This document shows positions 45,901 through 53,127 of a stretch of DNA of 64,000 bases, in pieces. Within the stretch, counting starts at the first letter, position 1; every line of letters starts with the position of its first letter. Origin of the DNA: Eledone cirrhosa (Eukaryota); assembly GCA_964016885.1 (NCBI GenBank), contig OZ024754.1, forward strand, positions 45,880,001-45,944,000. Reading direction: 5' to 3'. The notes beneath the pieces are model-generated. The model did no database searches, was not told where the DNA came from, and saw only the letters and a list, made by a program, of their open reading frames with translations. The translations under genes and the position numbers were made by a program.

Positions 45901-47052
45901 TATTAGCCTATTATCGCCTTAGAACGAAAATAGAATGCTGAGCTTCGATGTGACCTGCAGAATGTGATCGGTTTAATGAGCCCAAGCTGTAATCATCGAG
46001 GGAATGGAGAAGAGATCAATAAGCCATATCATGTAAGGAAGAATTCCAGGTTCTATTAATTAAAAAATAACTAGAGGGTCTACTACTGTGAAGAAAAGCA
46101 GCTAAAGACAAACGACTATTATAATCATTATCATCATCATCATCATTATCATCACCATCATCATCATTATCATCATTATCATCATCATCATCATTATTAT
46201 TGTTTGCCTTTCTCAAGGAATGTCAGATATCTTCTATAATAATGATTTGATTTTGCTAGTTTCTTCGTTTCACCCATAATCTGAATACGTTATGTCAGAA
46301 AATGAAATTGAGACTAGAAATGCATTTAAAGAAAATAGATCATATAAGTACAATTTAACATAAAGAACTGAAGAAATAGCGATGTTATACTCTTGTGAAA
46401 AAGCCACCACTTTTATTTTACAGCTTATCTGTTTCCATTGTGAGGGAACTTTCCTGTTTAAATTCTCCTAGTGTTCTAAAATCTATCTGATAGAAATTTC
46501 CCATAAATCATCCCTCGTGGATCTTGTAATAAAGAAAGGTTTTATATATGGTATGAGTGTTGCAACGACCTTACGGGTCTCGTGTTATGGTATTTGATAT
46601 AGATAAAATCTCAAGAGAATTTAACGTGCAATTTCATGTCGCTAAAAATGAAAATCTAACGTGGAATATACCGAAGGGTTTTCTTAAATGAAAATTGCAT
46701 TTTCTTGATCATAGATAAAATACAATATGGATGCATGTATAAATGTTTCTTTTCATTCTTTTTGCTGATATACAATAGAGAGCAAAGTTAAATGGTTTCC
46801 GATAACTTGTTCAAAGTTCAAAATTCTGTCAGGGTTTCGTTTGGCTACCAACCCAAATAAATTGATTTAATGACGCATCAGTAATTTACTGTCTTTAAAT
46901 CATTTTATTTGCTAACTCCTCTCCAACATAATTTGTCATGTACAGTAATAGCTAATCATTAAATTATTATTATTATTATTATTATTATTATTATTATTGA
47001 ATGCCATGGTTGACGGAGGCTCGGCTCTGTAAGGTATAGTAATTTTTAACCG

Positions 47053-47162
47053 TTAAAACAATTGTAAATTGTTTAAAACTTGAACCAAATTGTTGATAAA
47101 GACACCCTCCTCCTCGTGAGAGGGGTCTTTCTGTCCGTTATTTGGCCCTTCGGGGTTAAATA
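47053..47162 (+). promoter_or_regulatory. Structured LINE 5'UTR with three hairpins
   Basis: AAACAATT-gta-AATTGTTT; AAAGAC.CCCTC...GAGGG.GTCTTT; and TATTTGGCCC-TTCG-GGGTTAAATA with a C(UUCG)G tetraloop. Confidence 0.45.
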
Positions 47163-47211
47163 GCCAGTTATTGGGGTTTTGTACCCAAAATTTCATTTTA
47201 AACAAAAAAAC

Positions 47212-52300: not shown

Positions 52301-52747
52301 TACAGGCATGGAGGTGCCGTCAGCCGGGCATGTCCGAGATGCGCGCAGGGCGACGAAACCGTCCTGCACGCACTCGTCCAGTGTCCGAAAATTGCTGACT
52401 TGTGGGTTTATGTCGAACACCTGCTGTCGCGTTTAGGACGGATCCAGCTATCATCTGAGTCTATCGTGAGGATTGCCCCGCCCTCCTCCTTTAGCCGGGA
52501 AGGGCAGGCAGTTTTTATCTGTCTGGTGGCCATGGCGAAAGAGATAGTATGGTGGACACGTTTGAAAGGGCTGAAGACGAGCACTTACCTCTTCGGTGAT
52601 GCTCTGATTGACTTTTTCAAATTTCATTTGAAAAGGAAAATCAGAGTAGAGAAGGAAGTGCTCTCTTCCCAGCATTTTGTTGAAAGATGGGTGAGAGAAG
52701 CAAGAATGGCCCGAGTGAATGGGCCGACTCTGAGTATATATCTGTAA
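49328..52747 (+). CDS. LINE ORF2: APE endonuclease, reverse transcriptase and C-terminal Cys/His zinc finger (1139 aa, intact)
   Basis: APE motifs SINARGL, ISETR, VGDWN, YLDRVF and TDHK. RT motifs SPGLDGL, NFRPITLLN, LDQSKAFDRV, VRQGCPLS and AYADD. C-terminal CPRC..ETVLHALVQC. Tx1/L1-like GYWKLN and GGLG motifs. Confidence 0.96.
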   Translation: MTSLRIGSINARGLGSSWKQGHLLNDLRSLNIDVVAISETRISEARAFAPIFGGYDVYASPSRPGSGGGVAVLFRRGLDLAIRAIFLDPEGKLVVLDVTSGDGQAFRLVAVYAPTGAGRPDFFRRLETFLGTSRSLVLVGDWNGILDARWDCVGLADRGGGCKSLTNLLRRFELSDRYRLDFPNVPMWTWTNRIGSSRSYLDRVFCREIDRSSIGCPQFKIVSYTDHKFVICVLDLDRLHRRGPGYWKLNASLPARKAYRDRISELVKRALTGAIVNNKWWFALKRAIRIESIRFSKALAIEKNRAEGELVRKLDEALSKGIASDVLAAKLALDQFFNAKHEGCVVRARVRALRHEGTKAVQWARVAEARRGNKATIRSLVDHDGRMLLDPGQMCEAFQRHFAQLFGGSGGPGRGMDFSVYLDGLPRLSATEARCCEKPITAAEVREAMTGCTRGKSPGLDGLPYELYVQMPDLFGGLLADVYCNWQQNGRIPSSVSRGAVALLRKDPNKGDNIDNFRPITLLNTEFKILAKVLAKRLALVVGGLVGEAQTCAIPDRSIHDNLHLMRYIVERVAREPGTGGSLINLDQSKAFDRVDHRYLAAVLRAAGFGPVFRGWIAAMHSDICSVVRVNGHLSEPFNIMRSVRQGCPLSSLLYVLTLEPLLHKLETLRGVPRELGCGRSVSAYADDVTVVVSNAKHIEAIGTTLREYEAVTGAMINQEKSVGLQLGTWRGRSMPSNSVVGRWTDGPVKLLGVWFGPDLQTDKNWDEVTSRVASLTQKWAERKLSLKGRAEVANAYIASVICYRLTVVPCPKPRLTALERLLFRFLWKGRAPMVRRSICCQHPLRGGLGMPWLMMRRHALRLRHLHLFLDGDQVWSPFARRVFPQLVSLTELQSWVKRRPRGSAWRLECLQALTALDQSGNVIGGNSTSAFYRGLVEGKSDDVLGETLGVDENQLANLFGRTFGPGPMDNFQKSLAWQCYRGALPVRDKLYRHGGAVSRACPRCAQGDETVLHALVQCPKIADLWVYVEHLLSRLGRIQLSSESIVRIAPPSSFSREGQAVFICLVAMAKEIVWWTRLKGLKTSTYLFGDALIDFFKFHLKRKIRVEKEVLSSQHFVERWVREARMARVNGPTLSIYL

Positions 52748-53127
52748 ACTAAAGGTGGAAAACTGGGAGAGGGCACTTGCCTTGGTGGTCAGGGTCATTG
52801 TGGCTTTTTACTGGGCTTTCTCCACAAATGTCCCTCCGAAGTCTCCCCCCTATTGGGGAATTTTTTCATTGTTATTTTCATTGTTATTTTTGTTACATCC
52901 TCTGTTTTTGTTTTTTACACGCAGAAATGCCCATTTGTACCGTCCTGCATTGTCCTGCACTGTCCTTAATGTCTACTTTATGTAAACCCTTGTGGTTAAT
53001 AAAGAAATCATTATTATTATTATTATTATTATTATTATTATTATTATTATTATTATTATATATATATATATATATATATATATATATATATATATATATA
53101 TATATATATATATATATATATATATAT

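Follow-up and report, generated by a model that had tools for sequence, protein, structure and literature searches.

Our results revealed that a full-size LINE of Eledone cirrhosa belongs to a young family whose insertion target is likely the ATT microsatellite tract, used strictly by full-length copies and loosely by truncated ones. Genome-wide, 2,291 of the 2,369 5' ends of its subfamily A (97%) stood directly after (ATT)3 and in one common register, ATT|GAATG, and the same tract directly preceded 2,122 of the 2,281 5' ends of subfamily B (93%). An (ATT)n-specific family of the APE type is what the original prediction had proposed from a single copy, and the genome-wide counts agree with it. 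However, the specificity was strict for the full-length copies and loose for the truncated ones, and a SINE with the same type of 3' hairpin suggested that the motif actually nicked is a short ATTAT.

The element, its host gene and its family

The window, i.e. the whole stretch of 64,000 nt that was analysed, contained the following features.

36720..36908, + strand: exon of the host CARP gene, Carb_anhydrase 50-110
44472..44639, + strand: exon of the host CARP gene, Carb_anhydrase 162-219, the last before the insertion
46963..46998, + strand: (ATT)12, the 5' flank, presumably target DNA together with its duplication
46999..53009, + strand: full-size subfamily A LINE of the L1/Tx1 group, 6,011 nt, ends taken from the alignment with other copies
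46999..47211, + strand: 5' UTR of the LINE, folding better than shuffled sequences (z -2.6)
47212..48984, + strand: ORF1, 590 aa in the window copy, shortened by a private 16-nt deletion
48966..49292, + strand: C-terminal part of ORF1, shifted into another frame
49328..52747, + strand: ORF2, 1,139 aa, a single open frame, with APE endonuclease (aa 22-210), reverse transcriptase (aa 511-754) and zf-RVT (aa 974-1026)
52985..52997, + strand: 3' hairpin AACC-CTTGT-GGTT
52998..53009, + strand: AATAAA and the terminal GAAATC
53010..53057, + strand: (ATT)16, the 3' flank, target and/or tail, with (AT)n next
near 19810, 37750, 57750 and 58910: four copies of a SINE family

The LINE began with GAATGCC at 46999, directly behind (ATT)12, and ended in AATAAA-GAAATC-(ATT)16 with no poly(A), in agreement with the boundaries first read from the sequence. 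It had also been called intact, which was true of ORF2 but not of ORF1. Near 48973 the window copy lacks 16 nt that were present in 34 of 35 aligned rows in the majority of columns, and because this private deletion shifts the frame, its ORF1 has 590 aa and not about 697 aa. The window copy is defective and otherwise an ordinary family member. ORF2 carried the Pfam-type domains Exo_endo_phos, RVT_1 and zf-RVT and was CpG-rich as first read from the sequence, with an observed/expected ratio of 0.90 vs 0.67 in the remaining window. ORF1 gave no Pfam family above the cut-off, whether the broken or an open copy was used, and a ribozyme search of the 5' UTR in Rfam returned 14 weak matches, none at the gathering score. 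In both subfamilies the 5' UTR holds a small hairpin like the 3' one, with the loop TTTGT in A (window 47170-47190) and CTTGT in B (L099), and this candidate may possibly be a second binding site.

The LINE is intronic and, as had been supposed, in sense orientation, because the Carb_anhydrase exons lie on the + strand and a C-terminal CA-like exon was found beyond the window (in L249). The zinc-ligand stretch of the host gene is QLKIHFG, which we take to be without the first His of the carbonic anhydrase zinc-ligand consensus, and the gene was therefore called a CARP. The upstream flank of the insertion was single-copy in the genome. In other data for this site, the contigs of three sets from one sample broke off where the repeat begins, and the flank had hardly any coverage in three RAD-seq runs; none of these data spanned the site, and no empty allele appeared in them. 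A further high-copy repeat with very high read depth lay directly after the (AT)n tract (window 53130-53420).

A 34-mer from the 3' end of the LINE had 6,204 exact matches in the genome, while its reversed control had 0. The first 100 of these matches, all on C1 and on one chromosome arm, were taken as the sample of copies. The 5' end was present in 64 of them (41 of type A, the window's type, and 23 of type B); 34 were clearly truncated and 2 were unclear. L130, L136 and L143, which are full-length B copies with variant starts, were omitted from the truncated count, as were L100 and L153, where the junction with other families was unclear. Both ORFs were open in 11 of the 34 other full-size copies sampled (ORF1 of 689-707 aa, ORF2 of 1,139 aa). 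The closest sampled copy was 99.75% alike to the window LINE and family copies 99-100% alike were seen, in keeping with the recent activity that had been suggested. The family is young, has thousands of copies and includes competent members. Subfamily B has its own 5' UTR and ORF1 and shares ORF2 and the 3' end with A from element position about 2246; this arrangement, observed at L099:620-2800 and 24 other loci, is an ORF1 swap. Other related families of LINEs, which differ in the 5' end and likewise start after ATT, were noticed at L017, L094, L100, L138 and L142, and the RT of the related LINEs at L094, L100 and L144 was 74-79% alike. In the same cluster, an RTE-like endonuclease frame at L005 begins after a TAT/T-rich tract.

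ATT flanks, a companion SINE and the probable nicked motif

Among the 34 truncated copies, (ATT)3 was found at most 15 nt upstream in 16 (47%), a single ATT unit in 7 and no ATT near the 5' junction in 11. This set includes two tandem-duplicate pairs, and about 15 of 32 independent events follow (ATT)3. Among the exceptions, (TTC)n preceded two copies and (AAT)n, the wrong strand, preceded one. For comparison, only 0.25% of the window positions outside the LINE have (ATT)3 at most 15 nt upstream. Since the full-length 5' ends are in register and 16 of 34 truncated copies compare with this 0.25%, ATT is the likely target and not a tail alone. Mostly non-ATT 5' flanks, the outcome named beforehand as speaking against a target, did not appear when the flanks were tabulated with the truncated copies included.

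The 3' side is weaker evidence. ATT came next in 97 of the 100 sampled copies and (ATT)3 in 82, and perfect runs had a median of 9 units upstream and 10 downstream. These 3' tracts ran into antisense Dong-like tails in 28 of 100 copies, into another A/B start in 22 and into a SINE head in 11, all of which may be later arrivals. The antisense elements belong to two families, presumably of the Dong/R4 type by their C-terminal motifs, and occupied the same ATT/AAT tracts (3' flanks of L005, L012, L013, L016, L019, L025 and L027); short truncated copies of them had ATT on both sides. Two unrelated endonuclease types, acting on opposite strands, therefore appear to use one target.

The SINE, of roughly 190 nt, recurs in the flanks of the LINE and carries tRNA-like boxes, and it is presumably tRNA-type. 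Its tail 31-mer had 111,418 exact matches in the genome. In the 3' hairpin the CTTGT loop was constant while the stems were AACC/GGTT in the LINE family, GGCC/GGCC in the related LINEs and TGGC/GCCA in the SINE. Stems of at least 3 pairs formed at 144 of the 146 ends from the family, at all 10 from related LINEs and at 30 of the 41 binned as SINE, a bin in which 4 were LINE ends. LINE and SINE thereby share a 3' stem-loop with compensatory changes on both sides of the stem, as the members of a stringent pair do. The LINE family likely mobilises the very abundant SINE and is a candidate partner for it. At L137 and L156 a copy of the SINE interrupts the ORF1 of a B element; the insertion site there is ATTAA and the duplications measure 16-19 nt.

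In the first 30 SINE matches, ATT came next in 29 and only 4 stood after (ATT)3. Target duplications of at least 8 nt were found in 19 of the 30, directly after the SINE end, and nearly all began with ATTAT and continued as unique DNA (the script tolerated 10% mismatch and overstates the lengths by a few nt). The landing sites of this SINE, which has the 3' hairpin in common with the LINE, are ATTAT within unique DNA, and a short nicked motif is therefore probable. A single enzyme for LINE and SINE would then nick such a motif and make duplications of 10-20 nt in both cases, and it would not be microsatellite-specific alone, as only 4 of 30 SINEs follow (ATT)3. In that case the preference of the LINE for long tracts would need another cause, the simplest being that the ATT-repeat end of the RNA pairs with the primer. 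The LINE itself left duplications in impure tracts, of 16 nt in L122 and 11 nt in L104, both beginning with ATT; that in L104 sits at an ATT within an (ACT)n tract.

Alternatively, the endonuclease itself may read several ATT units, as strictly as Kibi and Koshi read their repeats, and the SINE may owe its movement to a relative that carries the same hairpin and is older or less strict. The contrast between the full-length 5' ends (97% and 93%) and the SINEs (4 of 30) is what such an enzyme would give, and the genome does hold related LINE families whose GGCC/GGCC stems are nearer to the SINE stem. However, the short truncated copies L104, L117 and L118 sit at single ATT(AT) sites. Longer endonuclease loops are known to accompany strict targets, and the loop before the SYLDR motif aligned without gaps to human L1 and was 2 aa shorter than in the nearest unnamed relatives (a comparison over the 3 of 14 proteins in which the pattern was located, none of them TX1-named). 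We therefore consider a strict enzyme unlikely and keep the short ATTAT nick.

Head-to-tail arrays and the proposed route of insertion

Head-to-tail copies of the family were common. In the trio L186-L185-L184, L185 was exactly the older L184 over the first 1,200 nt, and L186 differed from L185 at 1 position in the first 600 nt and shared with it a stretch of about 570 nt, rare variants included. The 3' parts of the three were distinct, with the younger copy upstream, and the spacers repeated the impure tract that stands before the array. A 10-unit array on C1 had spacers of 51, 36 and 30 nt, with three start points and the one end ATT|GAATG. In its units 1-8, all 25 variants of nt 1-1700 were shared and none was a singleton, while after nt 3700 there were 20 singletons and 2 shared variants, a polarity of shared 5' and private 3' parts with Fisher p 2e-11. 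In the control, 8 unlinked copies had 20 singleton and 13 shared variants in nt 1-1700. Such a pattern would arise if the resident copy served as the template on which the new cDNA is finished. However, neighbour completion is not the sole route to an array, because the tandem sets L181/L182 and L174/L173/L172 had no rare variants in common; plain insertion into the tract of a neighbour also makes arrays. The first unit of the C1 array, L193 (about 441.141-441.143 Mb), broke off on its 3' side near nt 2116, where the spacer followed directly, by internal priming or by deletion.

For this step alone, unequal crossing-over, gene conversion or misassembly would be another source of the arrays. 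Tandem duplication does occur here, since L174/L175, L117/L118 and L159/L160 are duplicates that include host flank. Yet crossing-over predicts 3' parts common to neighbours, whereas the 3' variants were nearly all private and the 5' ones all shared; the start points of the spacers also differ, and misassembly should have left identical units. Such an origin of the arrays seems improbable, and completion from the neighbour is the better reading.

Were ATT only a tail together with a 5' leader copied from the RNA, with the element inserting at short motifs anywhere and making its own tracts, the perfect register of the full-length copies, their many upstream runs of 6-8 units and the 11 of 34 truncated copies that have no ATT upstream would all be accounted for, but this is very improbable, because 16 of 34 truncated copies, which could not carry a leader, follow (ATT)3, because impure tracts are duplicated on both sides, and because insertion into unique DNA should leave duplications of unique sequence outside the tracts, of which none was seen, except one 5-nt match, in the 17 full-length copies whose 3' flank was open.

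With the ATT tract as target, we hold it fairly probable that the whole chain runs as follows. A nick made by the ORF2 protein in the AAT strand, at the short motif ATTAT, would come first, and the ATT-repeat end of the RNA would pair with the nicked strand and so steer insertion to long ATT tracts. ORF2p is predicted to bind the 3' hairpin, reverse transcription being primed at the nick, and a target duplication of 10-20 nt would be concealed within the tract. As insertion would leave ATT on both sides, the element would renew its own target. A cDNA that stopped early before a resident copy could then pair with the resident and gain its 5' part; the spacer would be duplicated and the product would be full-length. 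For the tRNA-type SINE, movement by the same machinery, of this LINE family or of close relatives, is predicted.

LINE and SINE seem to share the nicked motif and to differ in the use of long repeats, and the roles of the enzyme and of the RNA tail are therefore separable. Neighbour completion, if true, would explain the unusually high full-length share and the self-growing arrays. A wider reading, which we put forward tentatively and hold to be somewhat short of even, is that of a LINE lineage that evolved independently in octopods, with a short-motif endonuclease and RNA-tail pairing, with routine neighbour rescue, acting as the motor of a SINE of more than 100,000 copies and shaping the ATT landscape together with antisense Dong; here, routine rescue would be the reason for about 64% of copies having the 5' end and for arrays of at least 50 kb. 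ATT microsatellite markers in octopods are insertion hotspots and should be used with caution.

Placement and known systems

The LINE had the layout of the L1 group, with ORF1 followed by an ORF2 that has an N-terminal APE, a central RT and a C-terminal zinc finger. The best PDB match of ORF2 was human L1 ORF2p (E 3.5e-52, aa 5-854). At the same search size, ORF2 scored 320-347 bits with 5 of 6 proteins named TX1/YTX2 and 106 with the sixth, compared with 180 for human L1; these names are database annotations, and the five high scorers are TX1-named fish and alligator proteins. The nearest named protein, 74% alike in the RT region, came from Argonauta hians. The RT tree had 48 rows, and six of them, grouped by us as octopod (the window's, three from the same genome, the Argonauta protein and one unnamed), formed a clade (100/99) that was sister to unnamed proteins. 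The clade lay outside the TX1-named one, and the fork between them was without resolution in this tree, which has no vertebrate L1, curated Tx1, Kibi, Koshi or Keno and from which P0232 was dropped as too short. A look-up of relatives gave 10 clusters with names in one only; the Atlas clusters were generic RT, and a search with the endonuclease alone gave 7 matches. The Tx1/L1 assignment originally proposed was upheld as far as ORF2 is nearer to the TX1-named proteins than to human L1. From these comparisons the family likely belongs to the Tx1 clade.

In Octopus vulgaris, 13 L1-Tx1 and 5 Dong-R4 families were reported to be recently active, with targets unstated in the text available (PMC13282606). 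An ATT-targeting Tx1 element, or a Tx1 partner of any octopus SINE, was not found in the available text of the open literature searched, which comprised PMC4758252 and PMC10294476 besides the other sources cited here and lay outside Repbase and Dfam; the family sequence may well be catalogued already. According to the available text of Kojima, over 20% of the flanks of a target-specific family are of one sequence type, and its target existed before insertion (PMC4494074). The shares found here were 97% and 93% in full-length and 47% in truncated copies, and indirect support for a target before insertion comes from the duplicated impure tracts. With this family, whose lineage is separate from that of the vertebrate Tx1 elements, ATT is added to the targets known for LINEs of the APE type.

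As far as these sources were available, the known relatives with such targets are Kibi in (TC)n and Koshi in (TTC)n of teleosts and the crocodilian Tx1 families in (TTCC)n/(TTTC)n (PMC4494074, PMC3812793). Like our family, they are APE-type LINEs of the L1/Tx1 group with two ORFs that insert into a microsatellite on one strand. However, their targets are pyrimidine repeats instead of (ATT)n, the host here is an octopod and the window's RT falls in its own clade, Kibi and Koshi being compared here by their description. The (TC)n or (TTC)n targets of Kibi and Koshi were not those of our family, in which ATT takes their place and (TTC)n preceded 2 of 34 truncated copies. The same microsatellite, TAA, is targeted by Dong of the R4 clade (PMC3812793, PMC4640811), and the list of microsatellite targets, in the part available, assigns TAA to Dong only (PMC3812793). 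Dong-like elements even share tracts with our family. In contrast to the described Dong, which has a C-terminal restriction-like endonuclease and uses the opposite strand, our LINE has an N-terminal APE, a C-terminal zf-RVT and no C-terminal restriction-like endonuclease, and the two RTs were just 25-27% alike.

For the SINE, the closest parallels in the portions available are Tx1-Mar with SINEU (PMC4494074) and the stringent LINE/SINE pairs that have a common 3' stem-loop (PMC3747384, PMC4824008). A common landing motif and a 3' stem-loop with two-sided changes were likewise found here, but our SINE appears to be tRNA-type and the common part is about 25 nt only. The partners named for mollusc SINEs in the available parts of these works are CR1 or L2 (PMC3747384, PMC4824008); here this LINE family is put forward as the candidate partner of a major SINE of octopods. 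Finally, the proposed neighbour completion resembles the templated insertions of human L1, in which, according to the available text, the cDNA anneals to nearby homologous DNA (bioRxiv 10.1101/2024.08.27.596794). In both cases the cDNA would quit the RNA and copy and duplicate adjacent DNA. However, the human events are rare (22 cases) and mostly below 250 bp, whereas here the copied parts would span 0.6 to several kb and recur in arrays, as the 5' ends of the family are themselves flanked by the target.
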